32,000 nt of DNA from Synechococcus sp. (GTDB lineage Bacteria > Cyanobacteriota > Cyanobacteriia > Thermostichales > PCC-7336), in assembly GCA_051439605.1 (NCBI GenBank), contig JBFRWN010000044.1:109853-141852 (forward strand), read 5' to 3'. Under the pieces are notes generated by a model, which did no database searches, had not been told where the DNA came from, and saw only the letters and a list, made by a program, of their open reading frames with translations. Of this stretch, positions 317-32,000 are shown piece after piece (the first letter of the stretch is position 1; every line of letters begins with the position of its first letter). Made by a program: the position numbers and the translations under genes.

Positions 317-3300
317 TTAGGTCTCTACTGCTCCTAAAGTCTTCAGCACTGACTTTTGCGCTTGACTCAATCCCGTCACACCATCGATCGCCATCCCTTC
401 GTAGGGGCGATCGGCGCGCAGCCGCTGCAGACAGTCCCCCGTCTCCACATCCCATATAGCAATGGTGGCATCTCGACTGCCGCTAATCAGGCGATCGCCC
501 GAAGGCGTCAGGGCCATGGTTTGGACCCAATTGCTGTGGGCAGGCCAATTGGCCACCTGCTTTCCAGAAGATACATCCCACCACTGCACGCTGCCATCGT
601 TGCTGGCGATCGCCAACCGCTCTCCGCTGGGGCTAAACACGAGCGACCACACCCAACCGCTGTCCACCGCCCAGGTTTGCAAGCAGTCTCCTGATTCGAT
701 GTCCCAAATCCTTACGGTTTCATCTGTGCTCCCACTGGCGATCAGACGCCCGTCGGGGCTACAGGCTAAGGCATACACCCACCGACTGTGGCCGTTCAAG
801 ACCGCTAATTCTTCCCCGGTTGCAGTATCCCAGATGCGCACCGTTTTATCTTTGCTACAGCTGATCAGCCGCTGGCCATCGGGGGTGAAGCGAAGGTCAC
901 GCACCCAGTTTTTGTGATTCTGCAATACGCACCGAGTTTGTCCGGTGGCCACATCCCAGAGGCGGATCGTTCGATCGGTGGAACCGCTGGCCAGTAAGGA
1001 GCCGTCATGGTTCCAGGCTACAGCAATCACCCAGTTGGAATGTCCCTTCAGAACGCGGGCCACTCGACCGCTATTCACATCCCACAGCTGCACATCGGGT
1101 CCATCGCTGCCACTGGCTAAATACCGGCCATCCGGTTTCCAAGCCACGCATTGCTCTCGGTGAGCGTGGCCGGGGAGAGTACGCACTACCTGACCGGTGG
1201 CAAGGTCCCAAAGCTTGAGGGTGTAATCGGTGTGGCTGCTGACTAATAGAGTGCCGGCTGGGTTGAGTGCCACTGCCTGTACCCAGTTGGTGAAACCATG
1301 CCATGTCTTGAGGGTGCGACCGGAGGCGGTTTCCCAGAGCTTCACGGTGTGACCTTCGCAACCGCTAGCTAGCCTTCGACCATCGGGGTTCCAGGCTACC
1401 GTCCGCACGCAGTTTGTATGACCCGGTAACGTCCTGCAGATCTCTCCGGTGGCCACTGTCCAAAGATTTATGGTGCGATCGTCGCTACCGCTGGCCAACA
1501 GGGAACCATCAGGACTCAAGCTGACAGAGCGCACCCAATGTCGGTGCCCCTTCAAAATACGAATCGGTTGCCCCGTCCTAGCATCCCAGAGGCGTATGGT
1601 GCGATCGTCGCCACAGGAGGCAAGGAAGCGACCTTCTGGGCTGTAGCTGACAGAGCGCACCCAGCCCTGGTGCCCCTGCAGTGTTTGCTTGAGCTGACCG
1701 GATTCGACATCCCAAAATCGTACCGTACAGTCTTCACCAGCACTGGCGAGGGTCTTACCATCGGGGCTGAACTTTACCACTCGGACGGAACGGGTATGAC
1801 CCTCCAGAACCCTCAGCAGCTCGTAGGTCCTGGGATTCCACAAACGCACCGTGGTGTCTTCACTGGCACTGGCCAACAACGTAACGGCGGGATTAAATAC
1901 AACCGATCTCACGGTGTCGGTATGGCTGCGCAGCGTCGCCAAAGTATTGCAGCTGGAAGCATGCCACAGTTTCACCGTACGATCCGCACTGGCACTGGCC
2001 AATAGGTAAGGTGCAGTATCCCCCGGACGACCTATTTTCATGGGGGCAAAGGTGACCCCCCAAATGTAATTGGCATGGCCCTGCAGGATGGCGTATTGCT
2101 CGTTAGTACGAGTATTCCACAGGCGAATCTCGGCATTATTATCGGAAGTGGCGAGATAGTTTCCGTCGGGGGAAAAGCTCACCGAAAGAATGCTGCCAAA
2201 GGTGTTGGTAAAAACCGAGTGGGACAGATTGCAATGACTGAAATTGCTCTGTTGCAAATTAGCTTGGCGGAAATCTGCATGCCAAATGGTCAACTTAGAA
2301 AAATCATAACCAGCCAGGCTAATGCCTAAAACACTGCAAAGGTTAATCACATTCCCTGCACCGTATCCCGAACGATAGGCCACATCATTTCTCAACCAAT
2401 CAAATACCTGCAACAGTTTTTGAGTAATCGCCTGCAAAGAACCACCAGTGGACGTTAACTGGTCTGCAATCGGTTTCAGGATGAGCAGCTTCTGGACGTC
2501 GCGGATGTATTCTGCTGCTGTAGCTTTGGTCAGGGCGACACTTTGCAGCAGAGGTAGCCCGGCAATCTCGTCCAAGTTCCCGGATAATTCTATGGATAGG
2601 TGTTGAACGAGACGATCGGTAACATATTCCATCACAACTGGCTGTTGGGTGTAACCTCCCTCCTCCTGCTCAATCAGCGATCGCCAAGTGAGGGATTCTA
2701 AGGTCTGCAAGACAGTGGCCCGAGACACCGCAGGCACTAAGTCCTCTGCTAGTTGTGTCAGCATGACCGGCTCGCGGGCAGTCGCCAGCCAATACATCAC
2801 GCTTTGTTCGAGAGGGGACAGGCGGATAAACTGCTGATCCAGCAATTGTCGAATCGTGTTGAACAGGGTGATGTCCTGTTCGAGGAAGGTGGCAACATTA
2901 CCGTCGAACAAAGTTTGGATGGAGGTGGCTACAATTTTTAACGGTAGCGGGCTATTTCCGTAGCGATCGCACAGCATTTCGAGCTGTGCCTCAGTGCCCT
3001 CCAACCCCCCTCGGTGCAGCAACTCCATCGCCATATCCGCACAGCCTCCCAATTGGAGGGAACGAACGGACAAGCCCACCCCTTCCAAGGCCGCAATTTG
3101 AGCGGGTTTCTCGCGACTGGTTAATGCAACGCAACTTTGGTGAGAGGTTTCTCCCACTAAGCGAAATAGCTTGCCATACAGCTCGTACTCCGGACGATAC
3201 CGTCCCGCTTGGCCCGCCTGCAGAAGAGTCTCAATATTGTCCAAAACAACCAGGCAACGCTGCTTGCGAAGATGATGAATGGCCCGATCTACCGTGGCTT

Positions 3301-3892
3301 CTTTATCCTGACCGTTCGACAAAAAATCAACTAACTCTATGAGGAGATCGTCCAGGGGGGGACCATTACGCAACGATCGCCAGAAAACACAATCAAACTG
3401 CGAAGCGATTTGTTGACCTAGCTTAATGGTGAGGGAGGTTTTGCCCATCCCCGCCATCCCGAACAAGCCCACCAGCCGGCACCGATCGCCCACAATCCAC
3501 TGCTGCAGTTGCTGCAGCTCTTGCGAACGGCCATAGAACATCGAGACATCGGCAGCATCCCCCCAATCTTGGCGGCTGACGTCATTGTCGCGGGCCACAT
3601 GCATTGGGGGGGTCTCATCTGGCCGCACGTAATCGACCGCCTCAAGAGTTAGTCCAAACGCCTTAAAAAAAAACTCAATGGTTTGTCGATCGACCGGCAC
3701 CCGTCGAGCCGTCACTTTTGTCAACGTGTTGGGACTGAGTCCCGTACGCTCGCTTAGCTCCTCAAGCGTAAACGAACGGCTGTAGTTGTCCCGCAACTCA
3801 ACCGCCTCGCGCGCCTGCTGCAATTTTTGCCACCCTCTTGGGCTTAAAATTACGCCCCTTTTGCGTCGAGTGCGCTTGACAGCTCCGGTCAT
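317..3892 (-). CDS. STAND NTPase signalling protein: XRE-type HTH + NB-ARC P-loop + short pentapeptide-repeat stretch + 14 WD40 repeats
   Basis: The ORF track gives 317..3937; the ATG at 3892 ([13 protein letters not shown]...) looks like the more plausible start. HTH: [41 protein letters not shown]. Walker A is [13 protein letters not shown], Walker B-like is CLVVLDNIE, followed by ALTSREKP. Pentapeptide stretch: [23 protein letters not shown]. Fourteen units of the form GH..WV.SV.FSPDG..LASGS.D.T..LWD follow. Confidence 0.85.
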
Positions 3893-4351
3893 TTTGTTCT
3901 CAAGTCGCAGTTTGCAATCTATTTTGCATATTTCCACACAAATTTCTGCTTAAGTTGGGATCTTAAGTTGGGTTTTTTGCGTATTGTTATCTTTCTTTGC
4001 AGTTGCGAATACAAGAGTTAGGAGGGGGACAAACAAAATCGCCCGCTGTCCATAAAAAATACTACAAAAAATAAATATTTTGGCATAAATCAACACCAGT
4101 GGACGCAAAATAGATGAGAAAAAGTCGAGTTTCTCTCATTGATGAAATCTTGGGTAATACAAGCTGTTATCTCGCCTTAAATAGCCCTCTTGTGGAGTTT
4201 GGGCACCTACAGATCTAGGTATCTCTAGCGCCTCTGTTGGTATGCGCTGTCGCAGCAGGCAAGTTTTAGCAAGCACAACGAACCAACCCGATCTGCTGCG
4301 GCCTAATACACCGAATTCTGTAGGCCATACTATTGCCCCAATCGGAAGGAT

Positions 4352-11395: not shown

Positions 11396-11581
11396 GTATA
11401 CGGACCTGTGAAAATTGCCCTCTCTCTTCATCGCGCTCTCTATCTAGCCACATTGAACTATCTGTAGTGCATTAAGTTCATACTAAAAAATATTTCCCAC
11501 CACATATGGTGTAAAGGAGCTATTATTGGCATCAAGTGCTCCCGAACGCACTGTTTTGCCAATTGATTGTTGAAGCAACTT

Positions 11582-12871
11582 ATGGCACCAAACGACCCCA
11601 ACCTAGAGGCCCTCAAGACTCGCGTCCATCAGCAGGCGCAGGCATTAGCGGAGTCAGAGTCGCTTGCCATGCAAAACATGCAATATGCAGCCGAGTTGGA
11701 ACAACAACTCAATAGTTGCCAAGCTATGTTAAACACCCAAGACGTAACTGATGACAACATCAGCCTTTTGCAAACCCAGCTAACCGCCAGCAAACAGCAG
11801 TTGGAGCACCTCCAAGCTGATGTTGAGCGGGTGGTAGGGGAGCGAGATCGTCTAAGGCAAGACTTTGATACCGCACAACAGCGGTGCCAGCAACTGGAGC
11901 AATCGGCGAATAAAATTGCCAAACTCCAAAGCATTGCCGCCACCTTGAAGGTGGAACGGGACGAGCTAGCCCAGAAGCTTGAACAGGCTAAAACTGCGGT
12001 TGCGAACGTGCACTCAACAGAGCGCACGCTACAGCAAGTTCAGCAAAGCCAAGCAGAGCTAAAAGATCGAACACAACAGGTCACCCACGAGCGAGATACC
12101 ATGGCCAAACAGCTAGAGGAACTACAAGCTCAACTTGAGGGGGGAGAGTCAGAGCAGTTGAAGGCTGCTCAAAGGCGGCAAGAGGTCGCCGAGGCCCATC
12201 ACTACGTTCTCAAACGTCAGTACGAATCATTGCAAGAGCGGGTCAAAGAGCTGGAGAAGGAATGCGCCCAAGCCCATGCCCAGGCTCAAGAGTGCGATCG
12301 TGAAATGGCTCAGATCGAGCGCGCCAAAATCGAACTATTGGATCGATGCGATCGCCTTGAGGCGAACAATCAAACTCTACAGGCGAACAATCAAACTCTG
12401 CAGACTCAGCTCGACAGCCTCCATCAAGAAACAAGTCCTACACACACAACCCCAGAGCCCCTCTCAGTCGATTTTGTGCAACTGGAAAATGCCAAACAAG
12501 TTCTGCAGCAGGAACTGGTGGCACTGAGAGCCGAGAACCAAGCCCTGCAAGCCCAATTAGACGAACATCGCGATCGGGGAAGCGAGGAGAAAAAGGAGGC
12601 GACAACTGACGAACCCACAGATAAATCGTTCGTGCAATCTGTACGGGAAGCCACGGCTAGCTGCGACGTTCCTCCTAGCCCTAGCATCTATGATGCTAAG
12701 TTACCCTCCATTCCTCCACTGGAGATAATGGATCGCACTGTACCCAGTTCCAAGAATTTCGACCGCAGGGTGTTTAACCTAGCAGCTGCTTCAGCAGAAT
12801 CAGTCACCCCCAACAATACTATTGTTCGGCCCAAAGTCGTAGAACTGCCCGCATTCGTGCGGAGACGGTAG
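11582..12871 (+). CDS. Coiled-coil-rich protein with disordered C-terminal region ending in ...VELPAFVRRR
   Basis: The track ORF starts at TTG 11567; the ATG at 11582 (MAPNDPNLEALK...) is more plausible. About 340 aa are Q/E/L/A-rich heptad sequence, followed by a Pro/Ser-rich tail. A terminator hairpin follows. Confidence 0.7.
   Translation: MAPNDPNLEALKTRVHQQAQALAESESLAMQNMQYAAELEQQLNSCQAMLNTQDVTDDNISLLQTQLTASKQQLEHLQADVERVVGERDRLRQDFDTAQQRCQQLEQSANKIAKLQSIAATLKVERDELAQKLEQAKTAVANVHSTERTLQQVQQSQAELKDRTQQVTHERDTMAKQLEELQAQLEGGESEQLKAAQRRQEVAEAHHYVLKRQYESLQERVKELEKECAQAHAQAQECDREMAQIERAKIELLDRCDRLEANNQTLQANNQTLQTQLDSLHQETSPTHTTPEPLSVDFVQLENAKQVLQQELVALRAENQALQAQLDEHRDRGSEEKKEATTDEPTDKSFVQSVREATASCDVPPSPSIYDAKLPSIPPLEIMDRTVPSSKNFDRRVFNLAAASAESVTPNNTIVRPKVVELPAFVRRR
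12362..12403 (+). repeat. In-frame 21-bp tandem duplication (2 units, 1 mismatch) encoding ANNQTLQ-ANNQTLQ
   Basis: The two units are GCGAACAATCAAACTCTACAG and GCGAACAATCAAACTCTGCAG. Each unit is exactly one heptad of the coiled coil. Confidence 0.9.
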
Positions 12872-12948
12872 AGAGCAGCGCAGTGGCTAGTTGGATCGGC
12901 CAGTACGTGCGAACTTTAACTAGCGACGACCCGTTTGTGTTTGCCCTC

Positions 12949-12980
12949 AGATCCCCCGTATTTGGGGGATCTTCTCTATT
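12949..12980 (+). terminator. Rho-independent terminator of the coiled-coil gene
   Basis: AGATCCCCC-GTATTT-GGGGGATCT forms a 9-bp GC-rich stem and is followed by T-rich TCTCTATTCTG. It lies 78 nt after the stop codon. Confidence 0.6.
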
Positions 12981-13080
12981 CTGAGCTTAGGGCCTAGTTG
13001 CTTGCAGGCTTTTCCAGGTAAGGGCTGAGCAGCATATGCTATCTCTGCTGGTCGTAGAAATTGGTATGTAAGGAGTCTAC

Positions 13081-14379
13081 GTGAAGCGACCGATTGCAGT
13101 CGATCTGTTCGCCGGAGCTGGGGGAATGAGCTTGGGATTCGAGCAAGCTGGGTTTGAGGTCTTGGCAGCGGTGGAAATTGATCCCATCCATTGCGCCGTG
13201 CACGAATTTAATTTCCCTTTTTGGCGGATGTTTTGCCGCAGCGCAGCAGACATTACCGGAAGGGAGATTCGTGAAGATTCCGCCATTGGCGATCGCTCCA
13301 TCGATGTTGTGTTTGGTGGTCCACCCTGTCAAGGATGCTCCACCATTGGCAAGCGGGCGTTAAACGATCCCCGCAATGGGTTGATGCTCCACTTCCTAAG
13401 GTTAGTGCTGGAACTTCAACCCCGCTATTTCGTAATGGAAAACGTCAGAGGGCTGACAATCGGTCGCCATCGCCAGCTGCTCAAGGAGCTGATAGCAAGC
13501 TTCGCAGACAGCGGCTATCAGATCGTGCAGCAGTACCAAGTCTTAAATGCAGCCCATTTTGGAGTACCGCAGGATCGACAGCGCTTGTTTCTGATGGGGG
13601 CACGAGCGGGTGAACCTTTGGCCCAATATCCCAATCCCACTGTCCTCCCTGCCCGACCCATCCATAATGCAGGATTTCAGGAGGGAGCGACTTCGGAAGA
13701 GCTACCCAACGGCCCGACGGTGGCGGATGCCATTGCCGATCTCCCCGATATCGAACAATATGACGTACTGTTCCAGCAGGATTGGATGGGGGTGGGCCTC
13801 GCCCCGGAAGCCAGCAACTATGCCAAACTTTTGCGCGGCGATCTCCACTCCCCACAAGATTTCTCTTACCGACGTCAGTCTCCCTACACGGGGTTAACTT
13901 GCAGCGGTCGCACCCGCCACAGCGTTGCCACCATCGAGCGCTTCCGCCGCACCGAGCCCGGCACGGTAGATCGCGTCAGTCGCTTTCTCAAACTGCATCC
14001 CGATGGCCTTTGTAATACCTTGCGGGCGGGAACCCCCAGCAGTCGAGGGGCGTTTACATCTCCTCGTCCCATTCATCCATTCACCCCCCGCTGCATCACC
14101 GTCCGCGAAGCAGCTAGGCTCCATTCATACCCTGATTGGTTCCGCTTCCACTCCACAAAGTGGCATGGCTTTCGCCAAATTGGTAATTCTGTGCCGCCGC
14201 TACTGGCGCGGGCGGTGGCCTCCCAGGTGATACAGGCCTTGAACATCTGCCCTCGGCGACCTCGCAAAATATATCCTTTAGGGGACCCTCAACTGCTACA
14301 TCTCAAAATGACTCAAGCATCTGCCCGCTACAACGTCAGCAAACACACCATTGCCCCGCGACAGCGAATTGAAGTCTAA
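13081..14379 (+). CDS. dcm: DNA (cytosine-5)-methyltransferase, apparently orphan
   Basis: 432 aa with a GTG start. Motif I is DLFAGAGGMSLGF, motif IV GGPPCQGCS, motif VI ENVRGL and motif VIII QDRQRLF. Motif IX is ITVREAARLHSYPDWF and motif X is GNSVPPLLA. No endonuclease-like or Vsr-like ORF is on either side. Confidence 0.9.
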   Translation: MKRPIAVDLFAGAGGMSLGFEQAGFEVLAAVEIDPIHCAVHEFNFPFWRMFCRSAADITGREIREDSAIGDRSIDVVFGGPPCQGCSTIGKRALNDPRNGLMLHFLRLVLELQPRYFVMENVRGLTIGRHRQLLKELIASFADSGYQIVQQYQVLNAAHFGVPQDRQRLFLMGARAGEPLAQYPNPTVLPARPIHNAGFQEGATSEELPNGPTVADAIADLPDIEQYDVLFQQDWMGVGLAPEASNYAKLLRGDLHSPQDFSYRRQSPYTGLTCSGRTRHSVATIERFRRTEPGTVDRVSRFLKLHPDGLCNTLRAGTPSSRGAFTSPRPIHPFTPRCITVREAARLHSYPDWFRFHSTKWHGFRQIGNSVPPLLARAVASQVIQALNICPRRPRKIYPLGDPQLLHLKMTQASARYNVSKHTIAPRQRIEV

Positions 14380-18115: not shown

Positions 18116-18712
18116 ATGATTAAAAACGATCGCTGGATTACCACCCAGTCGATAAAAGGAATGCTCGATCCCTTCGAGCCCCAACTGGTCCGGCAGGTGG
18201 AATCCCCCAACGCTGTCCCCCGCCAAGTCCTCAGCTACGGACTTTCCTCCTACGGCTACGACATTCGCCTGTCCCCTGCCGACTTCCGCATCTTCCGTCA
18301 CATCCCAGGCACGGTGGTAGACCCCAAACACTTCAACCCCGACAATCTAGAATCCACCCCACTCCATTCGGACGACAGTGGCGATTTTTTCATCTTGCCA
18401 GCTCACTCCTATGGTTTGGGGGTGGCGATCGAACGGCTGGAAGTGCCCCCCAATATCACCACGATCTCAATTGGAAAGAGTACCTACGCCCGTTGCGGCA
18501 TCATCGCCAACCTCACCCCGGCAGAAGCTAGCTGGCGCGGTCACCTCACCCTTGAATTTTCTAATGCCTCCAGTGCCGATTGCCGTATCTATGCCAACGA
18601 AGGAGTCGTACAACTCTTATTCTTAGAAGGAGAACCCTGCGCCACAACCTACGCCGATCGCGCGGGCAAATATCAAGATCAACCCCAACAGGTGATTGTG
18701 GCTCGGGTATAA
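18116..18712 (+). CDS. dcd: dCTP deaminase
   Basis: 198 aa. Motifs: MIKNDRWI, SSYGYDIRL, IGKSTYARCGI and EASWRGHLTLEFSN. Both size and motifs are canonical for Dcd. Confidence 0.9.
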   Translation: MIKNDRWITTQSIKGMLDPFEPQLVRQVESPNAVPRQVLSYGLSSYGYDIRLSPADFRIFRHIPGTVVDPKHFNPDNLESTPLHSDDSGDFFILPAHSYGLGVAIERLEVPPNITTISIGKSTYARCGIIANLTPAEASWRGHLTLEFSNASSADCRIYANEGVVQLLFLEGEPCATTYADRAGKYQDQPQQVIVARV

Positions 18713-18956
18713 CGACAGCCGCGCAATCCTGGCAGTCCTCCGATCTGTCACGGAGGATGCACCCACGGAATTCCTTACGATTGCCAGCATGAATCCGATT
18801 TCCATAAAGAATTCGTACCCAAACACTAAACTCCATAGGCACCTATGAATGGATACTTTAGAGTGGGGATGGGAAAATTCCAGTACTCCAGCACACGATA
18901 CTTTGTGTCCGTCCGGATCCCGCCCCGCATATTTCGGAGCATTGCAGCGGTAGGTA

Positions 18957-21272
18957 GTGAAAGCGAGCAGACGTGATTTTTTAGTCAGAAGCCTCTTGGG
19001 GACAGCCGGGATCGCCGTTGCCCCCCAGATCGAAGCAGCAGCCCAACGCATATTGGGCCAATCTCAAACCTGGGGATCGGCTATGGCCGCCACCGCGGGT
19101 CGCAAATTTGCATTGTTGGTCGGGGTCGATCGCTACAGCAACGGCCTCGACCCCCTACAGGGATGTGCCACGGATGTCACTTTGCAGCAGGAGGTACTGG
19201 AACATCGGTTTGGGTTTTCCAACATTGCCACCCTGATCGACGAAGCTGCCACACGCGCAGCGATCGAACAAACATTCATTGACCATCTCATCGAGCAGGT
19301 GGGACCCAACGATTCCGTTGTTGTTCACTTTAGTGGCTACGGACGGACTCTTCCCGATGGCAGTCCGCTATTGATGTCAGCCGATGCTCAGGCTAATCCT
19401 GCTGGTGGGGAAATTACCGATCTGCCTCTAGAAACTCTCTACCAGCTGGTTCAAGCCCTCAACACCAGATTAGTCACCGTTGTTTTAGATTGCGGCTTCG
19501 CTACAGAAACCACCGCAGAATTAGGCAATTGGCGGGTGCGATCGCCGCTACCTCTTGCGAGCTTAGAAGTGGCTGATGGAGATGACTCTGATAGTTATCG
19601 CCATCCAGATTACCGATATGCAAAAGCGGTACTAGAGCGGCAAACTAGCATCCACGAGAAATACCGCACTAGCCCCCCCCCTGGAAGCTTTAGCTACGGC
19701 CTCATCAGTCGAGCGCAGGGCAACTGGATAATGGCAGCGGCCCCTGGCCAAGCTGCGGCAGAGGGCTTTTGGAATGGATTTAGTGCCGGCTTGCTGACCT
19801 ACCTCTTGACCCAGTCCCTGTGGGAAATGGGGGGCGTCGATGATTGGCAACAGCTCTATCAACTGACCAGCGCAAAAGCCCAGCAAGCGGCGGTTCCTGA
19901 CGAGCGGCCCATTTTGCAAGGGAAAGGCAATAGCCCCAATCGCCCTTATTCCCCGGATCCGATCGCGATCGGTCCAGCAGGGGCTTCGGGGGTTATCCAT
20001 GCGGTGCAAGATGACCGCACTGACATCTGGTTGGGAGGAATCTCCCCAACTGTCCTGCCTTTTTTGAAGCCAGGGACCCGGTTTAAGGATTGGAACGACG
20101 GTAAAGAGTGGGTGCTGAAATCCCGGGAACGGCTTACCGCTCGTGTAGAGCCAGCCGAGGATCTTTCCCCGCCCACCCCCCTGTCCTCAGAGGACGCTGC
20201 CACCCAGCAGCCCGCCAGTCAGCTGCCTGCTATCCCAGCAGCCGCCTCCACTGGTGGGGCAGCTTCTCAGAGAACGGCATCCCCCCTAGGAGCTCTGGTA
20301 ACGGAAGTCCAACGGGTTATTCCATTGGCGCGGTTAGCCATTGCCCTCGATAACAGTTTGCAGCGGATTGAAAAAGTTGATGTCAGCAGCGTCCTGTCCA
20401 ACGCGAATCTGGCCGGAGAACTGCATGCGCTCGAAACCGCTCAATTGCAGGAGCGTGCGGTGGACTGTTTGTTTGGCCGCATGACACCCGATTTACAGGC
20501 ACAACTGACTCTGGAGAACCCTCCAGAAGTCGGCAGCTACGGCCTGATGTGGTCCGGTCGCGTTCCTCTCTACGATTCCTTCGGCAATGCTGGCGAAGCC
20601 CCCAAAAGCGCTATCAAACGGCTCATTCCCCGGCTGCAGCATCTACTAGCGGTTAAACGCCTGCGCGCAACTCTGAACGACAATGTTTCCCAGCTCTCGG
20701 TGGTGCTAGAGATTGGCAGTGGTGAAACTACCTGGCAAGCGGGAACCGCTCCTGCCGCCACCCAAACCCCCCTTGTCCGCAAGCTGAAACGAGGTCGAGT
20801 GGGCATTCCGCAACTCAAGGTGGGAGCACCATTGGTTTACACCCTTGAAAACCGAGGAAACACCCCCATTTATGTGGTTTTAGCTGTCCTCGATCGCCTC
20901 GGACGATTGTGCGTGTTAGCGAACCAAGGGGGAGATAACGCAGGAGCTTCCATAACGATTGCCTCCCACAGCAAGGTGGATCTGGGGCAAGCCTTGGGGA
21001 TCGGTTTCGCAGTGCGCGCGCCACAAGGACTGACCGAGGTGTTTGCGATCGCTAGCAGTAACCCGATGCCTGCATCGGAAGATGCCCTCCAAACTGTCGC
21101 GCAAGCGATGGGGATCCGCAGCGGATTTGTTATGCTCCCCCAGCCCATAGACTTTGCCCAAACCGTATTGGCGGATCTGACGTCCCCTGGAACAGCCGAA
21201 GGGACCCGGCTACTCGATCACGCCCAAAGTGCCACGATTGGACTAGCCTACACCGTAGTCCAATCTGTCTGA
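18957..21272 (+). CDS. Tat-signal-bearing caspase-fold (peptidase C14) protein with a substituted catalytic dyad (pseudo-orthocaspase) and a ~580-aa uncharacterised C-terminal region
   Basis: GTG start. The N-terminus MKASRRDFLVRSLLGTAGIAVAPQIEAAAQ carries a twin-arginine motif SRRDFLV. The p20-like domain reads KFALLVGVDRYS...LQGCATDV...ATRAAI...VVVHFSGYGR...VTVVLDCGFAT. Tyr128 occupies the His position of SGHG, and D-C-G-F replaces D-x-C-H. Confidence 0.75.
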   Translation: MKASRRDFLVRSLLGTAGIAVAPQIEAAAQRILGQSQTWGSAMAATAGRKFALLVGVDRYSNGLDPLQGCATDVTLQQEVLEHRFGFSNIATLIDEAATRAAIEQTFIDHLIEQVGPNDSVVVHFSGYGRTLPDGSPLLMSADAQANPAGGEITDLPLETLYQLVQALNTRLVTVVLDCGFATETTAELGNWRVRSPLPLASLEVADGDDSDSYRHPDYRYAKAVLERQTSIHEKYRTSPPPGSFSYGLISRAQGNWIMAAAPGQAAAEGFWNGFSAGLLTYLLTQSLWEMGGVDDWQQLYQLTSAKAQQAAVPDERPILQGKGNSPNRPYSPDPIAIGPAGASGVIHAVQDDRTDIWLGGISPTVLPFLKPGTRFKDWNDGKEWVLKSRERLTARVEPAEDLSPPTPLSSEDAATQQPASQLPAIPAAASTGGAASQRTASPLGALVTEVQRVIPLARLAIALDNSLQRIEKVDVSSVLSNANLAGELHALETAQLQERAVDCLFGRMTPDLQAQLTLENPPEVGSYGLMWSGRVPLYDSFGNAGEAPKSAIKRLIPRLQHLLAVKRLRATLNDNVSQLSVVLEIGSGETTWQAGTAPAATQTPLVRKLKRGRVGIPQLKVGAPLVYTLENRGNTPIYVVLAVLDRLGRLCVLANQGGDNAGASITIASHSKVDLGQALGIGFAVRAPQGLTEVFAIASSNPMPASEDALQTVAQAMGIRSGFVMLPQPIDFAQTVLADLTSPGTAEGTRLLDHAQSATIGLAYTVVQSV

Positions 21273-25360: not shown

Positions 25361-26351
25361 TTACAAGCTGATTAACGATGAAACTGCCTCCTGTGCCATT
25401 GCAGCAATCGTTTCATCAGTTGCTCTGGGTAAGCAGTAGTAATTTCCATTTGCCTGCAAAGCCAGCTCCCGTGCAAATCCTGCCGAGACAAACTTGCGAT
25501 CGGTGTCAATGAGCAATAGTTGCATGCCCAGGGCGCGAATTCTGGCCGCAATCTCCAGCAGTTCCTGTTTGATATCGGGCTGTTCTGCATTCGATTCGGA
25601 AACATGGGCTTGACGTAACGACCTCGATCCTGCGAAAAAATTAGGTTTCCCCCGCCAGCTTTGCCTCGGCGACGGCGAGTCAGCCGGGCAAAGTTTAGCA
25701 GAGTCGGATCGATCTCCATCGGTTTGGGGGGGATCTCAAACTCCTCTGGCAACGTTTCACCATCCTTCGCCAGTTCCACCCCCACCTGCAAATCCTCAGC
25801 ATTGACGATCGTTCGCCCCGATAGGGCCGCACGGGCCTTGGCAACCCATACTGCGCACAATTCCCCCCGGTGGCCCTCCACTTGGGCTCGCTCGGCTTCA
25901 GAGACTAAATAAGCGATCTGGTGCCTGGCGATGGCGACACCAGGCAGTAACTGCCGGGCAAGGGCAACTTGCAATTGCAGATTCTCAACGTCAGCCGCGT
26001 ATCGTTCCAGAAAAGCTTGAGGGTTGTCTTTGTCAGCGATCGCCCGATTTATCCCCTCAATCCGTTGCTCTACTGTTAGTGGGCGATCTCTGCCGACAAA
26101 CCCATGGCAAATAGGTCGAACAAGCGAGAGCGCAACTGTTTTTCTTCAGGATTGTAGGTGGCGATAAAGAGGGGCTTGCAAGGATGTTCGAAGCTATTGC
26201 CTTCCCGCTCGATGCGATTTCGCCCCTCCGTCAAGATGGTTAGCAGCAGATTGGCAATGCTGTCCTCCAGCACATCCAGTTCGTCGACGTAAACTACGCC
26301 GCGATGGGCTGCGGCTAAAAGCCCCGGTTGGAAAACGGTTTCATCCTGCTG
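25361..26351 (-). pseudogene. Heavily eroded Mg-chelatase subunit D (ChlD/BchD)-like pseudogene
   Basis: ChlD-like peptide is read in three different minus-strand frames. (i) 26351->26076: [89 protein letters not shown]. This is preceded by an in-frame TGA at 26352-26354, and there is no Walker A region. (ii) After a frameshift near 26080: [49 protein letters not shown]...HRGELCAVWVAKARAALSGRTIVNAEDL...[19 protein letters not shown]. (iii) After another shift near 25585: [72 protein letters not shown], with the TAA at 25363-25361. Most of the vWA/MIDAS domain is deleted. Confidence 0.7.
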
Positions 26352-26629: not shown

Positions 26630-27862
26630 ATGCTGAATCATCCAAAACACCAAGCTTGTCTTTGTGGGAGCAATGCAGAAGTCGTTAAAGCACTGACAGA
26701 AACAGAGAAAATAGTAATAGGAAGGGCTCTAGACTGCCAGATTATTTTCGACGCTCCCCAGGAGGATGTCAGCGTCTCCAGACACCATGCAGAAGTGCGC
26801 CCTCTGGCCGAGTCAGAGGATTGGGAAATTTGCGACCTCAACAGTGCTAACGGAACCTTCGTTAACGGACAACAATTGCATGGATGTTTAAGATTGACTC
26901 CGGGCGATCGCCTAACTTTTGGCCAGAGTCCACGGGAATTAGTTTTTGAAGTCCAAACGCTCCCGGCTATAGAGACGGGAACGGAAGTTTCTTCTCCGGG
27001 ACAGAAAGGTCCTTTGTCGAGGCCAACAAATCATCACCGTAGTATTCTCTCTCCTGGAAGCTGGTTTCCACCGTTACGATCCCCCATTCAAAGCTCTGAC
27101 TCAAAACCACGCTCAAGCTGGCAAGAGCTGTGGGAAAAAGGCAGATTCTCGTCGGTATTTATCTACTTAATACTATGTTTGATCGCAGTTTCGGTATCAG
27201 ATCGAGGCATTTCTAACGCACTTTTTACTGGATGCCTGCTAAGCATAGCCATTGCAACCATTTCTAGATTATGTGGCAAGTATAAGCCTTGGTGGCTGAT
27301 CTTAGGATTAGCCTCAATCACTGCGGGTTTAACAGTTGTGGGACATGACTTGTTACCCGATATCCTAGCTGTAAAAAACGGTATATCTATTGTAAGGCAG
27401 TTGATTAAGGCTCCTACAAAAGAGATAATCAAAGCACTACCTGTGCTAAGCATCTATTCTATGGGCAGAATGCTGCCTCGCGCTTTACAGAAGAGAATCA
27501 GAATTGTCGATCCTCTGGATGGAGTCTTATTAACAATTGCTTCAGCAATTGGGCTCGTAGTTGTTGAAAGTTATCATAAAGATCTTGCTCTCATTATTGC
27601 TGGAATTTTGCCCAATACTGCCGGGGATTTAGCTTATAGTGGAGTTTTTGGCTACTACATTGGCCTGAGCGCAATGAAGAGTCCTCGTCACCGTTGGAAA
27701 ATAATCGGATTTGGTTTTTTGCTGACGTCAGTGCTTCATTTTGTTCTAAATCTCAGATTTTTTCCAGTCGAGATTAGGATTTTGCTATCAATTTTAGAAT
27801 ATAGTCTGTTGATAACCTGTATTCTTAAAGGAATAGATGAAGCAGAAAAAATGAGAGCATAG
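26630..27862 (+). CDS. FHA domain protein fused to a C-terminal multi-pass membrane domain (tentatively PrsW-family intramembrane protease-like)
   Basis: 410 aa; GAGGG lies before the ATG. FHA: IVIGRALDCQIIFDAPQEDVSVSRHHAEV...WEICDLNSANGTFVNGQQL...LTPGDRLTFG. A Ser/Pro-rich linker follows, then at least 7 hydrophobic segments. The motifs APTKEIIKALPVL, IGLVVVESYHK and LTSVLHFVLNL loosely resemble the PrsW EExxK / E / HxxxN motifs, with the first Glu replaced by Lys. GC is visibly lower than the backbone. Confidence 0.7.
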   Translation: MLNHPKHQACLCGSNAEVVKALTETEKIVIGRALDCQIIFDAPQEDVSVSRHHAEVRPLAESEDWEICDLNSANGTFVNGQQLHGCLRLTPGDRLTFGQSPRELVFEVQTLPAIETGTEVSSPGQKGPLSRPTNHHRSILSPGSWFPPLRSPIQSSDSKPRSSWQELWEKGRFSSVFIYLILCLIAVSVSDRGISNALFTGCLLSIAIATISRLCGKYKPWWLILGLASITAGLTVVGHDLLPDILAVKNGISIVRQLIKAPTKEIIKALPVLSIYSMGRMLPRALQKRIRIVDPLDGVLLTIASAIGLVVVESYHKDLALIIAGILPNTAGDLAYSGVFGYYIGLSAMKSPRHRWKIIGFGFLLTSVLHFVLNLRFFPVEIRILLSILEYSLLITCILKGIDEAEKMRA

Positions 27863-27982: not shown

Positions 27983-29137
27983 TTACCGTTTCTTAAGATG
28001 TAAAGAGACATGGATGATTTGCTGAAGAGATTCGGGAACTTCTAAATAGATTGCATTCGCAATCTCTCCGAAAATAGTTGCTAAAGAACCAGGATATATC
28101 ATAATTGACAAGCCATATTTAACAAGACAAGCAGTCAGAGCAAGCTCTTCGATTAAATATTGGCGAGACAATTCTACAAAGTTTTCGAAATTGTCAGCAT
28201 TCCGTTCGATGTGCCGAAGTGTAAAGTCATCGGCACAAGCTTTAACTGAAAGGGCAAATCTGCTATCTTGGGCAACTAAATCTTCTATTCGCTTGAGATT
28301 TTTATAATACTCATCTGAATTTTCGATCTCTGAAGCACAGATCGTATCGATATGGCAGGTGTCTGCATGTCGTTCAAAGATGCCGCTTGACTTGTCTATG
28401 AATTCTCTCCCGAGAAGCAGTGCTTTGGTACGTGCTCGCCTTTCGCCAATACCTCTGTGGATTTGCAATGTATATTGATGAATGCTATCAGCAATAAATA
28501 CCGTGCATCTCTTGTAATGATTTGCGATCCAATCTACTGTTGCTATCAACCTTGGCATTGAAAATTTTTTGTTTTCTAAACTTACTCCTAAAAAGCAATG
28601 TTCGTTCTGATTAAGCTTTTTCCGAGCAGTATTCGGAATAACATTGCTCACCAGTGCGCGATATCTAGAGCGAGTTAAAAAGGATATTTCCTGTCGCGGT
28701 TTTATCAGCTTTTCGTATTCTCTATACTCCATTCTCAAGAGATGTCGGTAAGACCCTAGATAACAGGAAATTTCTTGATTTTGGAGCAAATCTTGCGCAA
28801 GTATGGTTTCCATCTGATAGATATTTCCGAAGGGGGGGATGGTACCATACTCGCACCCGGGAAATAACTGGCTAGCTTCTTGTCGATCGATCAACCTAAC
28901 CTGGGTTGTCCCTAAAGCTTTTTGAAGAGATCCCAAATTAATTGCTAAACTCGCGGGGATCACCACCATAGCTTTGTGATGATGTTCGATTTCTACGATT
29001 ACAGCTTCAATTAGCTCCATTCCTAACATGGATTTATAGTCCGAAAGTTCCTGCTCTGTACAAGCTGGTGAATGTTCGATCGTTATATATTTGATCTTGT
29101 TCTGATTTAAAACATCCTGGACTTTCTGAATCATCAT
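27983..29137 (-). CDS. Fusion protein: N-terminal YbaK/ProX-type aminoacyl-tRNA trans-editing domain + C-terminal cyclodipeptide synthase (CDPS) domain
   Basis: 384 aa. Residues 1-~148 match the tRNA_edit fold: KVQDVLNQNKIKYITIEHSPACTE, KAMVVIPASLAINLGSLQKALGTTQVRLIDRQEASQLFPGCEYGTIPPFGNIYQMETILAQDLL..EISCYLGS. Residues ~175-384 carry the CDPS signature. HCFLGVSLENKKFS holds Ser186 in the G-x-S catalytic context and Asn189. YLIEE gives Tyr327 and Glu331, and IMIYPGS gives Tyr348-Pro349. The Ser-to-Tyr spacing of 141 residues equals that of AlbC Ser37-Tyr178. Sampled 60-nt lines are about 25-45% GC, and there is no HIP1 site. Confidence 0.75.
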   Translation of the reverse strand: MMIQKVQDVLNQNKIKYITIEHSPACTEQELSDYKSMLGMELIEAVIVEIEHHHKAMVVIPASLAINLGSLQKALGTTQVRLIDRQEASQLFPGCEYGTIPPFGNIYQMETILAQDLLQNQEISCYLGSYRHLLRMEYREYEKLIKPRQEISFLTRSRYRALVSNVIPNTARKKLNQNEHCFLGVSLENKKFSMPRLIATVDWIANHYKRCTVFIADSIHQYTLQIHRGIGERRARTKALLLGREFIDKSSGIFERHADTCHIDTICASEIENSDEYYKNLKRIEDLVAQDSRFALSVKACADDFTLRHIERNADNFENFVELSRQYLIEELALTACLVKYGLSIMIYPGSLATIFGEIANAIYLEVPESLQQIIHVSLHLKKR

Positions 29138-29149
29138 GACCGATAAATT

Positions 29150-32000
29150 CTATATGTCGTGACAGACTTCTAGTTCTTTTTTGGCTTCGGGATGCGTGGC
29201 TAGATAATCCTTTAGCCAATTGCATCCCTTGTCTATGAGTTCCTCGTAGCTGGCAATTGGCCACAGATAAGCAATTCCATTGGCTGAAGCAGTGACTATC
29301 TGTTCTCCATCGGGACTGAAGCTGGCGCTATGGACTGCATCGCCTTGATGATCCGTAAAAAGAGGGAATAGTTTGCCCTGCAAGTCCCACTGGCGAACGG
29401 AGCCATCTGCCGAGCCAGTGAGCAAATGCTTCCCATCGTGACTGAAACTGACGCTATGGACTGCACCTTCGTGGCCAGCGAATTCTTCTTGCAGTTGATT
29501 GGTCTTTAAGTTCCACAGGCGAGCAGTTTTATCCGCCGATCCAGTCAATAGATAGTCTCCTTCAGGACTAAAGCTAACGCTCCAGATCCAGCCTGTATGG
29601 CCTGGGAATTCTTGCACTTGATTGCCCTGCAAGTCCCACAGTCGTGCCGTGCCGTCAGCCGATCCTGTCGCAACCTGCTGCCCGTCAGGACTGAATTGTA
29701 CACTCCATACCTCAGTCTTCTCGCCGACGACAGTTGCGAGTTCTATCACGTCTGCAACGTCTATAACCTCCCCTTGTGGACGATCTGGCAAGTCATAGAT
29801 ACGAACCGTGCCGTCAGACGAGCCAGTGACTAACTGCTGACCGTTGGGGCTAAAATCGACCCCCCAGACCCAATCCTTGTGACCAATAAATGTGGCTAGC
29901 TGATTCCCTTCTAAGTCCCACAAGCGGGCGCTACCATCTGCCGATCCGGTTGCAAGCTGCAGTTCGTTGGGGCTAAAACTCACCTCCAGTACCGTTCCCT
30001 CATGGCCGATAAAATTCGCTTGCTGATTCCCCTGCAAGTCCCATAAACGAGCGGTGCTATCTGCCGAACCTGTGGCTAGTTGCTGCCCGTTGGGGCTGAA
30101 ACTGGCGCTATAGATGAGACCCGAATGACCGATGAACTTAACCTGCTGCATATTCTTCAAGTTCCACAGTCGAGCAATGCCATCGGTCGAACCCGTTGCA
30201 AGCTGCTCTCCATTGGGACTGAACTCAACGCTCCAAACTTGGCCACGATGCCCTCTAAATTCTTCAAGTTGATCTCCCCGTAAGTTCCACAGGCGAGCTG
30301 TGCCGTCTTCCGAGCTTGTCACTAATTGCTGGCCATCCGAGCGGAACCGGATGTTATAAACCGGCCCACGGTGACCTCTCAATTCTTTCACTAGAGCACC
30401 CTGTAAATTCCACAGGCGAGCTCTTCCATCTTCTGCGCCGGTTGCTAACTGTTGCCCATCGGGACTGAAATTCACACTGTAGACTGCACCTTCGTGGCCT
30501 GTAAATTCGATCGAGCGATCGCCCTCGATATCCCACAGACGGGCGGTGCCACCTGCCGAACCCGTTGCGAGATACTTTCCATCGGGACTAAAGTTGACAC
30601 TCCAAATCCAGCCGTTGCTATCTGAGTATTCATGCAGGAGGTTGCCCTCTAAGTCCCACAGACAAGCTGTACCGTTATCCGAACCGGTAGCCCACTGCTG
30701 ACCATCGGGGCTAAAACTAATGCTCAAGACTTTGCCCTGAAGGTCCTTAGTGAATTGAATCAATCGATCGCCCTGTAAGTCCCACAGGCGAGCCGTACCA
30801 TCCCACGATCCAGTCGCTAGGTACTGACCATCGGGACTGAAACTGACAGTCTGGACTCTGTCCAGATGGCCTTCTAACTCTCGCAGTAGATTGCCCCGTA
30901 AATCCCATAAGCGGGCCACACCATCTTGCGAGCCGGTAGCCAGCTGCTGACCATCGGGACTGAAACTGACACTCCAGATTTCACTCTCAAGGGGTTGAAA
31001 TTGATTGCGTTCTTCAATCCCGTAAAGAATTTTCCCCAGTGCCATCACAACCGTCGGTGCTTGTGCAAGTAGATTTTTTCCTTCACCCATTCTTTGTGCA
31101 GACTGCATTGACATCAGCAAGGCTTTTAACTGTGAAGAGGTCTCGAACTCGCGCAAAGCCTCTAACCCCTCCCGTTCCAGTTTCAATGCGCGCAGTCTAG
31201 ATTGACTTTCCCTAAAGACCAGTCCTCCGACTATGGTTGAGACTGTCAGACCGATCAAGAGTACTGCCGTCGCTTGTTGAAGCCGCTGCTTTGCCTTGCG
31301 AGAAGCATTATTGACGTGTTCTAGTGTTTTATTCGCTTGTTCCAGGCTTTGGTTGACTCGTTCCAGTTTTTGATTGGCTTTTTCTACTTTTTCCTTAGCG
31401 TGGCGTAATTTCTCTTTCGCATCTTGTTCCGCCTTCTTTGCTCGACGCTCGCTCTTCAACGCTGTTTCAATGTCCTGTTTCTCTCGTTCCCGACTGGCAT
31501 CTAAAAACTGATTGTCGTCATCGCTCAAGCTTTTCCCCTTTGCCCATACCTTCGCCTGCTGCAATGCCTCGCCCCGCAACAGACAGGTATCATCCTGGCG
31601 GTTGGAGGCAAGCCAAGCATTGAGGAATGCAGCATAGGGGCGCAGGTTCGCCAATTCCCCTGCCACCCAGTCCAAGTCAAAAATGGCCTGGTAGATAGGA
31701 TTGCGGGAGCGGATTTTATCCCGATCCTTCACCACCAACCCCGACAGGCGCAGGTCAATCTCCTCCAGACTTTCCGTAGCGCTAACTTCCCCCTGTTGCA
31801 GCACCCGTTCGTAAAGAGCCAGGATGCGCCCTTTACGGGGGTTAGGATTGCTCAAATCCTCTCTTAGCAGGCGATCGCGAATAGTCTTCAGGTGCTCGGG
31901 AACATCCTGTGCCTCCCACTTGTAAAGGATGCGATCGCGCACCAATTGGGCTACCCGGTCTAGCTCTTCCCCAGCAGCGATGGGGGACTCGGACGATTGA
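29150..32000 (-). CDS. Large WD40 signalling protein, 5'-truncated by the window: C-terminal part of an AAA-like/STAND-type module + coiled coil + one TM helix + 14 near-identical WD40 repeats
   Basis: The track start at 31945 is a TTG. The frame stays open to nt 32000 (...SPIAAGEELDRVAQ|LVRDRILYKWE), so the gene continues beyond the window. LRLSGLVV...NPIYQAIFDLDWV...LRPYAAFLNAWLASNRQDDTCLLRGEALQQAKVWAKGKSLSDDDNQFL is the usual tail of cyanobacterial AAA-like NTPase modules. A Lys/Glu coiled coil follows, then the TM helix ATAVLLIGLTVSTIVGGLVF (31214-31273). Fourteen units of FSPDGQQLATGS.DGTARLWDLQGN....F.GH.G.V.SV come next. The stop TAG at 29152-29150 is 12 nt before the next gene's ATG. 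Confidence 0.85.
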   Translation of the reverse strand, partial: QSSESPIAAGEELDRVAQLVRDRILYKWEAQDVPEHLKTIRDRLLREDLSNPNPRKGRILALYERVLQQGEVSATESLEEIDLRLSGLVVKDRDKIRSRNPIYQAIFDLDWVAGELANLRPYAAFLNAWLASNRQDDTCLLRGEALQQAKVWAKGKSLSDDDNQFLDASREREKQDIETALKSERRAKKAEQDAKEKLRHAKEKVEKANQKLERVNQSLEQANKTLEHVNNASRKAKQRLQQATAVLLIGLTVSTIVGGLVFRESQSRLRALKLEREGLEALREFETSSQLKALLMSMQSAQRMGEGKNLLAQAPTVVMALGKILYGIEERNQFQPLESEIWSVSFSPDGQQLATGSQDGVARLWDLRGNLLRELEGHLDRVQTVSFSPDGQYLATGSWDGTARLWDLQGDRLIQFTKDLQGKVLSISFSPDGQQWATGSDNGTACLWDLEGNLLHEYSDSNGWIWSVNFSPDGKYLATGSAGGTARLWDIEGDRSIEFTGHEGAVYSVNFSPDGQQLATGAEDGRARLWNLQGALVKELRGHRGPVYNIRFRSDGQQLVTSSEDGTARLWNLRGDQLEEFRGHRGQVWSVEFSPNGEQLATGSTDGIARLWNLKNMQQVKFIGHSGLIYSASFSPNGQQLATGSADSTARLWDLQGNQQANFIGHEGTVLEVSFSPNELQLATGSADGSARLWDLEGNQLATFIGHKDWVWGVDFSPNGQQLVTGSSDGTVRIYDLPDRPQGEVIDVADVIELATVVGEKTEVWSVQFSPDGQQVATGSADGTARLWDLQGNQVQEFPGHTGWIWSVSFSPEGDYLLTGSADKTARLWNLKTNQLQEEFAGHEGAVHSVSFSHDGKHLLTGSADGSVRQWDLQGKLFPLFTDHQGDAVHSASFSPDGEQIVTASANGIAYLWPIASYEELIDKGCNWLKDYLATHPEAKKELEVCHDI

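Follow-up and report, generated by a model that had tools for sequence, protein, structure and literature searches.

A single gene of Synechococcus sp. encodes one protein in which the complete catalytic set of a tRNA-dependent cyclodipeptide synthase (CDPS) is joined to an N-terminal domain with the fold of YbaK-type tRNA-editing enzymes, and this N-terminal domain lacks the conserved lysine of its superfamily. The gene lies in the 32,000-nucleotide stretch analyzed here (assembly GCA_051439605.1, contig JBFRWN010000044.1, positions 109,853 to 141,852), which is referred to as the window and whose own numbering is used throughout. CDPSs have been regarded as small enzymes that act alone and build scaffolds in antibiotic-type pathways, several cyanobacterial members are inactive in E. 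coli, and, to our knowledge, the natural roles of CDPSs outside actinomycetes are largely unknown. The protein described here represents a large, unrecognized class of CDPSs whose N-terminal domain derives from a tRNA-editing enzyme, the key residue of which was lost repeatedly. This appears to be a clean case of pseudo-enzyme evolution in which hydrolysis would work against the substrate supply of the partner domain. Moreover, the genes of this class provide a specific, testable gene linkage of cyclodipeptide synthesis with NLR-like NTPase-WD40 cassettes, in which SIR2 or kinase/FHA proteins are the partners.

A CDPS and an editing-fold domain in one chain

Both domains are encoded by one continuous open reading frame (ORF; 27983..29137, minus strand), which runs over 384 residues from an ATG start to a stop codon at 27985-27983. 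The YbaK/INS-superfamily (tRNA_edit) domain occupies residues 1-148 (28694..29137, minus strand), and an XYP-type CDPS domain occupies residues ~150-384 (annotated as residues 155-384; 27986..28675, minus strand). The Pfam tRNA_edit model (PF04073) matches residues 22-144 with an E-value of 8e-16 (58.7 bits, cut-off 25.5), and the CDPS model (PF16715) matches residues 171-334 with an E-value of 9e-16 (58.7 bits, cut-off 27). Furthermore, the NCBIfam model for tRNA-dependent cyclodipeptide synthases (TIGR04539) gives 103.1 bits, above its cut-off of 45. An AlphaFold2 (AF2) model built from a 51-sequence alignment is confident over the full chain, with a mean predicted local distance difference test score (pLDDT) of 93.5 and a predicted template modeling score (pTM) of 0.90. 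Its two halves superpose on the CDPS folds of 9J61, 5OCD, and 5MLQ and on the YbaK-like folds of 3OP6, 1DBU, and 1WDV, respectively, while a Foldseek search against solved structures returned none that spans both halves in one chain. A preliminary description, made from the letters of the window, had proposed this union of a YbaK-type domain and a CDPS in one polypeptide, and the family models, both above their curated cut-offs, and the solved structures bear it out for both halves.

The best sequence and structure match of the C-terminal half is SsBcmA (9J61), which aligns with residues 147-384 at 37% identity and an E-value of 4e-42. The corresponding half of the AF2 model reaches a Foldseek template modeling (TM) score of 0.93-0.96 to 9J61, with a root-mean-square deviation of 1.2-2.0 Å, and the Rossmann-like CDPS fold is recovered with TM scores of 0.84-0.86 to 5OCD and 5MLQ. 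Based on the 9J61 alignment and the residue roles reported for SsBcmA (PMC11580168), S43 corresponds to Ser186, the acyl-enzyme serine (codon 28580..28582, minus strand), and N46 corresponds to Asn189. Similarly, Y185 and E189 correspond to the catalytic Tyr327 and Glu331 of a YLIEE motif (28145..28159, minus strand), and Y206-P207 to Tyr348-Pro349, the XYP signature (28091..28096, minus strand). The catalytic set of AlbC (S37, Y178, E182, and Y202) is thereby found as S186, Y327, E331, and Y348, the Tyr-Pro pair at AlbC positions 202/203 is Y348-P349, and Asn189 lies at the X position, like N46 in SsBcmA. These S/N/Y/E/Y-P positions are invariant in 41 of 41 fusion and stand-alone relatives. 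As judged from its sequence, the window protein belongs to the CDPS family and to the XYP subfamily, with all testable defining features present. The CDPS hallmarks and the XYP-type assignment proposed earlier are thus confirmed by the family models, the SsBcmA alignment, and the invariant residues. The individual residues and codons named at that time (Ser186 at 28582-28580, Tyr327, Glu331, Tyr348-Pro349, and the loop LFPGCEYGTIPPFGNIY at residues 91-107 of the N-terminal domain) also proved correct.

The substrate pocket sets the protein apart. A 2018 CDPS overview assigns the P1 motif FGLGC(I/V)FM to the cLI/cLL group, and most Nostoc orthologues of the fusion carry this motif. The P1 pocket of the window protein, FGFAALTM, is identical to the cLI/cLL motif FGLGC(I/V)F(M/F) at 3 of 8 positions and falls outside the group. 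A P1 motif of FGFAA(L/I)TM and a P2 motif of C(D/E)FRGLA are common to the window protein and its two nearest relatives. Since these motifs persist although the three subclade members share only 61-64% identity, they argue for a functional pocket of different specificity, and such distinct conserved motifs predict new products.

The comparison with BcmA, the cyclo(L-Ile-L-Leu) synthase of bicyclomycin biosynthesis (PMC11580168), points in the same direction. The two proteins share the catalytic S/Y/E/Y-P residues and the equivalent of N46, and the SsBcmA pocket positions F39, G41, M204, and G208 are conserved in the window protein. In contrast, the window P1 motif differs from FGLGC(I/V)FM of the BcmA group, and its P2 motif, CDFRGLA, differs from F-x-Y/F-K/R-G-F-S. 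BcmA is a 249-residue single-domain enzyme clustered with oxygenases, whereas the window protein carries a 148-residue N-terminal domain, and neither the window nor its near-identical contig L045, described below, holds bcm-type 2-oxoglutarate or P450 oxygenase genes. Because the pocket differs and oxygenase genes are not adjacent, the window protein does not qualify as an orthologue of BcmA with respect to the pathway. Other multi-domain CDPSs are known, for example CDPS 71-P450 and fusions to a methyltransferase, an ABC transporter, or a Legionellaceae C-terminal domain (PMC5816076). These known fusions are C-terminal and of a tailoring or transport type, whereas the window fusion is N-terminal and involves a degenerate tRNA-editing fold.

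The editing lysine and the spread of the fusion

The closest structural relative of the N-terminal domain is the free-standing YbaK-like protein lpg1207 (3OP6), which matches residues 1-148 with E-values of 1e-25 to 2e-26. The N-terminal half of the AF2 model has a Foldseek TM score of 0.88 to 3OP6 and of 0.78-0.80 to 1DBU and 1WDV. Proteins of the lpg1207 type are ~155 residues long, carry the JGI label Ala-tRNA(Pro) deacylase, and share a GxMPPFGNLY-type loop with the window protein; we found no biochemical characterization of this clade in the literature. As a comparison set, 24 such free-standing relatives with 35-45% identity along the entire N-terminal domain were sampled.

HMMER alignments to E. 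coli YbaK (2DXA), H. influenzae YbaK (1DBU), and APE2540 (1WDV) place the catalytic lysine of the INS superfamily (K46 of E. coli YbaK) opposite Glu44 (codon GAA, 29006..29008, minus strand), and the 3OP6 alignment agrees. The lysine had been noted earlier as missing, and this is correct; its position had been given as Ala45, which instead aligns to the threonine that follows the catalytic lysine. This column is Lys in all 24 free-standing relatives, where it lies in an AKT motif, and in none of 21 fusions, which carry Glu (18), Asn (2), or Ala (1). Other near-invariant residues of the free-standing proteins are also exchanged in the fusions: H22, N126, and H130, present in 24/24, are replaced by Tyr, E85 by Gln, and A35 by Lys. 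The GxxxP loop of the editing fold is retained in the window protein as GTIPPFG (residues 98-104; 28826..28846, minus strand). Its G98-T-I-P-P102 stretch is kept throughout the close clade and is gone from the distant fusions P0022 and L018. Furthermore, the equivalog models of YbaK proper, a Cys-tRNA(Pro) deacylase, score far below their cut-offs (TIGR00011, 36 against 153 bits; PRK10670, 14.5 against 243 bits).

As reported, all characterized INS-superfamily members use the conserved lysine together with the GxxxP loop (PMC11286415). In ProXp-ala, binding and accommodation of the CCA end, and not hydrolysis alone, depend on this lysine, which contacts A76, and the K45A variant loses microhelix binding (PMC10164551). 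More generally, the lysine of the superfamily contacts A76 and the C75-A76 phosphate and is required for binding (PMC10164551, PMC11286415). Because this defining lysine is absent, the N-terminal domain is best described as a predicted pseudo-deacylase, homologous to the YbaK/INS superfamily and not to be filed as a deacylase. The acidic residue at the lysine site argues against proofreading and, less decisively, against canonical capture of the 3' end of aminoacyl-tRNA (aa-tRNA).

Two further clues were considered and set aside. Lys35, which is found in 100% of the close clade, could be a migrated lysine that pairs with or replaces K44, but distant fusions with E44 or D44 lack K35, and the explanation is not general. 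Net charge and isoelectric point of the N-terminal domain were uninformative as a sign of tRNA binding (median charge −5 in the fusions against −4.5 in the free-standing relatives).

A search among 5.8 billion proteins retrieved 20 that have both Pfam domains in a single chain, with identities of 45-64% to the window protein. Their sources are Nostoc, Amazonocrinis, Anabaena, Leptolyngbyaceae, and Prochloraceae, and none bears an annotation beyond tRNA-dependent cyclodipeptide synthase. The fusion is also encoded at 11 genome loci and about ten metagenome loci, and the Logan contig L045, 99.9% identical over 4851 bp, reproduces the fusion ORF. An exhaustive HMMER search of 1.84 billion cluster representatives added ~30 further CDPS clusters of 357-406 residues with N-terminal extensions of 135-160 residues, whose named members belong to Methylococcaceae, Bacteroidota, and other cyanobacterial metagenome-assembled genomes (MAGs). 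The architecture is common in sequence databases, a frequency that the preliminary description had missed. Searches of IMG/VR viral contigs found no relative, and a plasmid collection held no fusion, only separate CDPS or YbaK genes.

Across the ~30 distant clusters, the N-terminal domain ranges from clearly YbaK-like to undetectable; the lysine column holds Glu or Asp in ten of them, and the loop is lost in many. Lysine and a near-intact loop occur together only in a few distant fusions, namely P0103 (Bacteroidota), P0111, P0109, and L056. This pattern suggests that a fusion with a competent editing domain likely came first and was followed by repeated loss of the catalytic apparatus. In the close clade, the mean identity is 63% for the N-terminal domain and 62% for the CDPS domain, and the median dN/dS is 0.29 and 0.31, respectively. 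Since identity and dN/dS match those of the CDPS domain, the N-terminal domain is maintained by selection.

One member of this family has been catalogued before. BAT53543.1 of Nostoc sp. NIES-3756, placed in the predicted cLI/cLL group by the 2018 overview, is a member of the fusion family and nearly matches P0012 in the region shown. It was catalogued from MKYVDFEKL, which corresponds to Met136, so its N-terminal domain went unseen. Searches of full-text literature, with most subscription journals outside their coverage, turned up neither an account of the fusion nor one of a CDPS linked to defence or STAND systems, and within this coverage the earlier claim of an undescribed architecture stands. 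Collectively, the architecture is present in public databases but uninterpreted, and what is new here is the pseudo-enzyme state together with the linkage to the cassette.

Two side observations concern copies of the gene. The copies at L017 (98-1246) and L053 (2518-3681) contain an internal stop or frameshift, which reflects either decay or sequencing error. Single MAGs hold two or three diverged fusion paralogues (45-56% identical to the window protein), as in Prochloraceae (L008/L016/L048) and Leptolyngbyaceae (L011/L015), and each paralogue except L015 has its own NTPase-WD40 partner.

NTPase-WD40 cassettes around the fusion gene

In the window, a gap of 12 nt without a promoter-like or terminator-like site (29138..29149, minus strand) separates the start of the fusion gene from the stop of a WD40 gene upstream. 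Consistent with this, a promoter and terminator scan around the fusion gene gave counts at or below those of shuffled sequence. The upstream gene is the 3' part of an AAA_35 NTPase-WD40 gene (29150..32000, minus strand), whose frame stays open to the end of the window and whose full length is covered by contig L045, which reaches 3.6 kb beyond the window. An earlier assignment of this gene as nSTAND1 (E-value 2e-12) was rejected, since L045 shows AAA_35 and the match lay in a helical region before the WD40 array. On the other side, a gene for an FHA and PrsW-like membrane protease (Pfam; 26630..27862, plus strand) is convergent with the fusion gene and has the same position in L045, L046, and L050. 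The order in L045 is a Ser/Thr-kinase-AAA_35 gene (639 residues), the AAA_35-WD40 gene (1214 residues), the fusion gene, and the convergent FHA-PrsW gene. The same four genes are found in L050 (fusion protein 61% identical) and, as far as the contig reaches, in L046 (64%), and AAA_35-WD40 orthologues occupy the same position in L046 (57.6% identity) and L050. The preliminary description had overlooked this cassette, although the upstream WD40 gene was visible in the window; its statement that classical tailoring genes are not adjacent is correct.

Of the 16 informative loci in the clade at ≥45% identity, 14 have an NTPase-WD40 gene next to the fusion gene and in the same orientation. In other lineages, the gene directly upstream encodes an nSTAND1-WD40 protein of 1057-1312 residues. 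Upstream of this gene lies, in turn, a SIR2_2 gene that in Nostocales also encodes a calcineurin-like domain (Metallophos-SIR2_2, in L001 among other loci). In the second Prochloraceae copy (L016 and L055), the order is inverted, and a fused SIR2-NTPase-WD40 gene lies 3' of the CDPS gene. The AAA_35 and nSTAND1 NTPase modules have no detectable similarity, and in 30 of 36 locus pairs the SIR2/nSTAND1 cassette is flanked by unrelated genes. Because the flanks are mostly unrelated and two NTPase families are involved, the cassette travels as a unit, and the association has outlived replacement of the NTPase. No tailoring, transport, or resistance genes were found in the cassette, and a search for tRNA genes in the cassettes found none except one unrelated tRNA-Val in L013.

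The cassette contains a P-loop NTPase and a repeat sensor, which are features of STAND/NLR-like systems, together with partner domains of an effector type (SIR2, calcineurin-like, kinase, and FHA). Such domains (SIR2, calcineurin-like, Ser/Thr-kinase, and FHA) form the effector vocabulary of STAND-NTPase counter-invader systems in multicellular bacteria (PMC8195603). Compared with nSTAND1 and NACHT systems (PMC8195603, PMC7159879) and with Avs5 SIR2-effector STANDs (PMC11897194), the P-loop NTPase and the WD40 sensor are shared, the partners are of the same kinds, and the cassette likewise moves as a unit. In contrast, the listed effectors of these systems include no CDPS or tRNA-editing domain. 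CDPS and YbaK are unmentioned in PMC8195603 and in its 2020 companion. A PADLOC search of the partner genes gave only partial or weak matches, namely the N-terminus of PDC-S60, a weak ThsA, and a WD40-driven HEAT-ARM_XIII.

A small protein of ~167 residues also travels with the SIR2/nSTAND1/CDPS cassette (L001 11312-11815; homologues in L005 and L010-L014), positioned either downstream of the CDPS gene or upstream of the SIR2 gene. By eye, it has three apparent hydrophobic, putatively transmembrane segments; it has a weak PADLOC match to PDC-M50A and belongs to no Pfam family. No homologue of it was found in the window.

Possible roles of the fusion protein

The reading that we favour, tentatively and as falling somewhat short of probable, combines an active XYP-type CDPS, a non-catalytic N-terminal domain, and a place as the last gene of an NLR-like cassette, with the cyclodipeptide as the output of the sensor. 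The CDPS would take two aminoacyl-tRNAs through a ping-pong mechanism with an acyl-enzyme at Ser186 and release a 2,5-diketopiperazine. Its product would probably be composed of hydrophobic residues, with a P1 pocket that differs from the Leu-Ile/Leu-Leu consensus of the nearest relatives. The N-terminal domain probably descends from a free-standing deacylase of the YbaK/INS type, and it would neither edit nor bind the CCA end in the canonical way, because the residue that should hold A76 is now Glu and conserved polar residues are now Tyr. Being under selection and predicted to pack rigidly on the synthase, it may act as a non-catalytic accessory in regulation, in ligand or product binding, or in partner docking. 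The fusion gene appears to close an operon-like cassette headed by the P-loop NTPase-WD40 (NLR-like) protein, and cyclodipeptide synthesis may be controlled by this sensor or constitute its output.

Several observations weigh against this reading. In SsBcmA, the F193A substitution abolishes activity (PMC11580168), and the window protein has Thr at this position, so activity or specificity may differ; a change of L71 to Phe that is paired with the change of F193 to Thr may compensate. Conservation of the GxxxP loop in the close clade leaves binding of some acyl-adenosine-like ligand possible. Two close loci, L004 and L015, are without an NTPase-WD40 neighbour, and distant fusions sit in other contexts (with P450 and TerB-like genes, with an aldo-keto reductase gene, or with GGDEF-EAL genes), which argues that the fusion predates the cassette and does not need it. 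WD40 and STAND genes are abundant in filamentous cyanobacteria, and the window holds a second one. Finally, PADLOC had no match for the fusion, and the cassette was not recognized as a catalogued defence system.

A more specific version, possible but rather unlikely, is that the pseudo-YbaK-CDPS works in NLR-like counter-invader systems of filamentous cyanobacteria, either as an effector that diverts aminoacyl-tRNAs or as a signal generator. As a signal generator, it would produce a cyclodipeptide that serves as an intracellular or filament-wide alarm or toxin, alongside the SIR2 or kinase/FHA-protease arms. Because overexpression of CDPSs in E. coli is generally tolerated, a purely aa-tRNA-depleting toxic effector is less likely, and a small-molecule output that signals or is toxic agrees better with this tolerance. 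Product analyses in this host have relied on overexpression of more than 100 CDPSs (PMC5816076). If the linkage is functional, synthesis of a small molecule from aminoacyl-tRNAs would be tied to bacterial conflict or immune signalling. If the counter-invader version is true, the fusion would be the first enzyme of tRNA-dependent peptide-bond formation to be assigned to a bacterial immune pathway, and a cyanobacterial CDPS would for the first time have a physiological role.

The N-terminal domain could alternatively capture substrate. That is, the lysine-less domain would still bind the aminoacyl-CCA end and hand a specific aa-tRNA to the CDPS site, as the preliminary description had suggested when it proposed capture or selection. 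Retention of the loop (G98-P102/G104) in the close clade, purifying selection on the domain, and the aa-tRNA-binding nature of the family of its free-standing relatives are consistent with such channelling. Moreover, the confident two-domain AF2 model suggests a fixed geometry, and the deep-branching P0103, P0111, P0109, and L056 keep both lysine and loop, so the ancestral fusion may have bound aa-tRNA. However, the lysine is required for binding at A76 and the CCA end (PMC10164551), and Glu or Asp in its place should repel the C75-A76 phosphate. The conserved His and Asn residues of the free-standing relatives are replaced by Tyr, many fusions have a full CDPS and no loop or no recognizable N-terminal domain, and CDPSs of the same clade that stand alone do without such a domain. 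The capture idea is therefore weakened by the lysine requirement, by the exchange of H22, N126, and H130, and by deletion of the loop in distant members, and we regard it as unlikely.

Quite unlikely, too, is an ordinary natural-product CDPS whose N-terminal domain is vestigial or structural and whose proximity to NTPase-WD40 genes reflects shared ancestry or gene abundance. The loci L004 and L015, the distant fusions next to P450 or unrelated genes, the existence of CDPS fusions to other domains (PMC5816076), and the plentiful WD40 proteins of cyanobacterial genomes all agree with it. Nevertheless, the neighbour is present in 14 of 16 loci, two different NTPase families take its place, the gene order is permuted in L016 and L055, and the flanks are unrelated in 30 of 36 locus pairs. 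The 12-nt gap, the dN/dS of the N-terminal domain, which equals that of the catalytic domain, and a cassette that lacks tailoring, transport, and resistance genes also speak against this reading.

Active proofreading, in which the N-terminal domain would be a working deacylase that removes wrong aminoacyl-tRNAs ahead of the CDPS or has a protective role for the cell, was also raised in the preliminary description and is now very improbable. The fold and the GxxxP loop are retained, and self-protection by tRNA deacylases is known from biosynthetic clusters (PMC13149037). However, the lysine, strictly conserved in the 24 free-standing relatives, is missing in 21 of 21 fusions, which effectively excludes this option, TIGR00011 stays far under its cut-off, and a deacylase fused to a consumer of aa-tRNA would destroy its own substrate. 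An assembly or frameshift artefact that joined two separate genes has a negligible probability, as more than 30 independent loci or proteins share the continuous frame and length and a second assembly is 99.9% identical.

Other unusual CDPSs were met in the course of these comparisons. A TerB-like protein of ~160 residues accompanies a second cyanobacterial CDPS clade (L006 9095-9580; L018 11279-11776, minus strand; L024 12342-12839; L077 8550-9224, minus strand). In the Prochloraceae locus L031 (10013-13925), which has three CDPS genes in tandem, a TerB-like domain is fused to the CDPS N-terminus (454 residues). TerB-like proteins are another undescribed partner or fusion domain of CDPSs. In addition, P0138 (697 residues) and P0164 (713 residues) are N-extended CDPSs with an extra N-terminal region of ~330 residues that begins with a weak, below-cut-off match to a response-regulator receiver. 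Together with the GGDEF-EAL neighbours in L042 and L044, these proteins hint at frequent links between the CDPS family and signalling modules.

Elsewhere, the window holds further genes of a conflict type. The second NLR-like gene (317-3937, minus strand) encodes a protein of 1206 residues with a helix-turn-helix domain, an NB-ARC/NACHT-type NTPase, and WD40 repeats. The regions at 11567-14379 and 18116-21272 (plus strand) have the flavour of a defence island. The first holds a 434-residue ORF that has no Pfam match beside a C5 DNA methylase, and the second encodes a dCTP-deaminase-like protein and a caspase-like protein (Peptidase_C14) of 771 residues, whose C-terminal 457 residues have no Pfam match. 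Two short ORFs at 25372-26273 (minus strand), one with an AAA_lid_2 domain and one a 65-residue piece, resemble fragments of a broken Mg-chelatase-type AAA gene.

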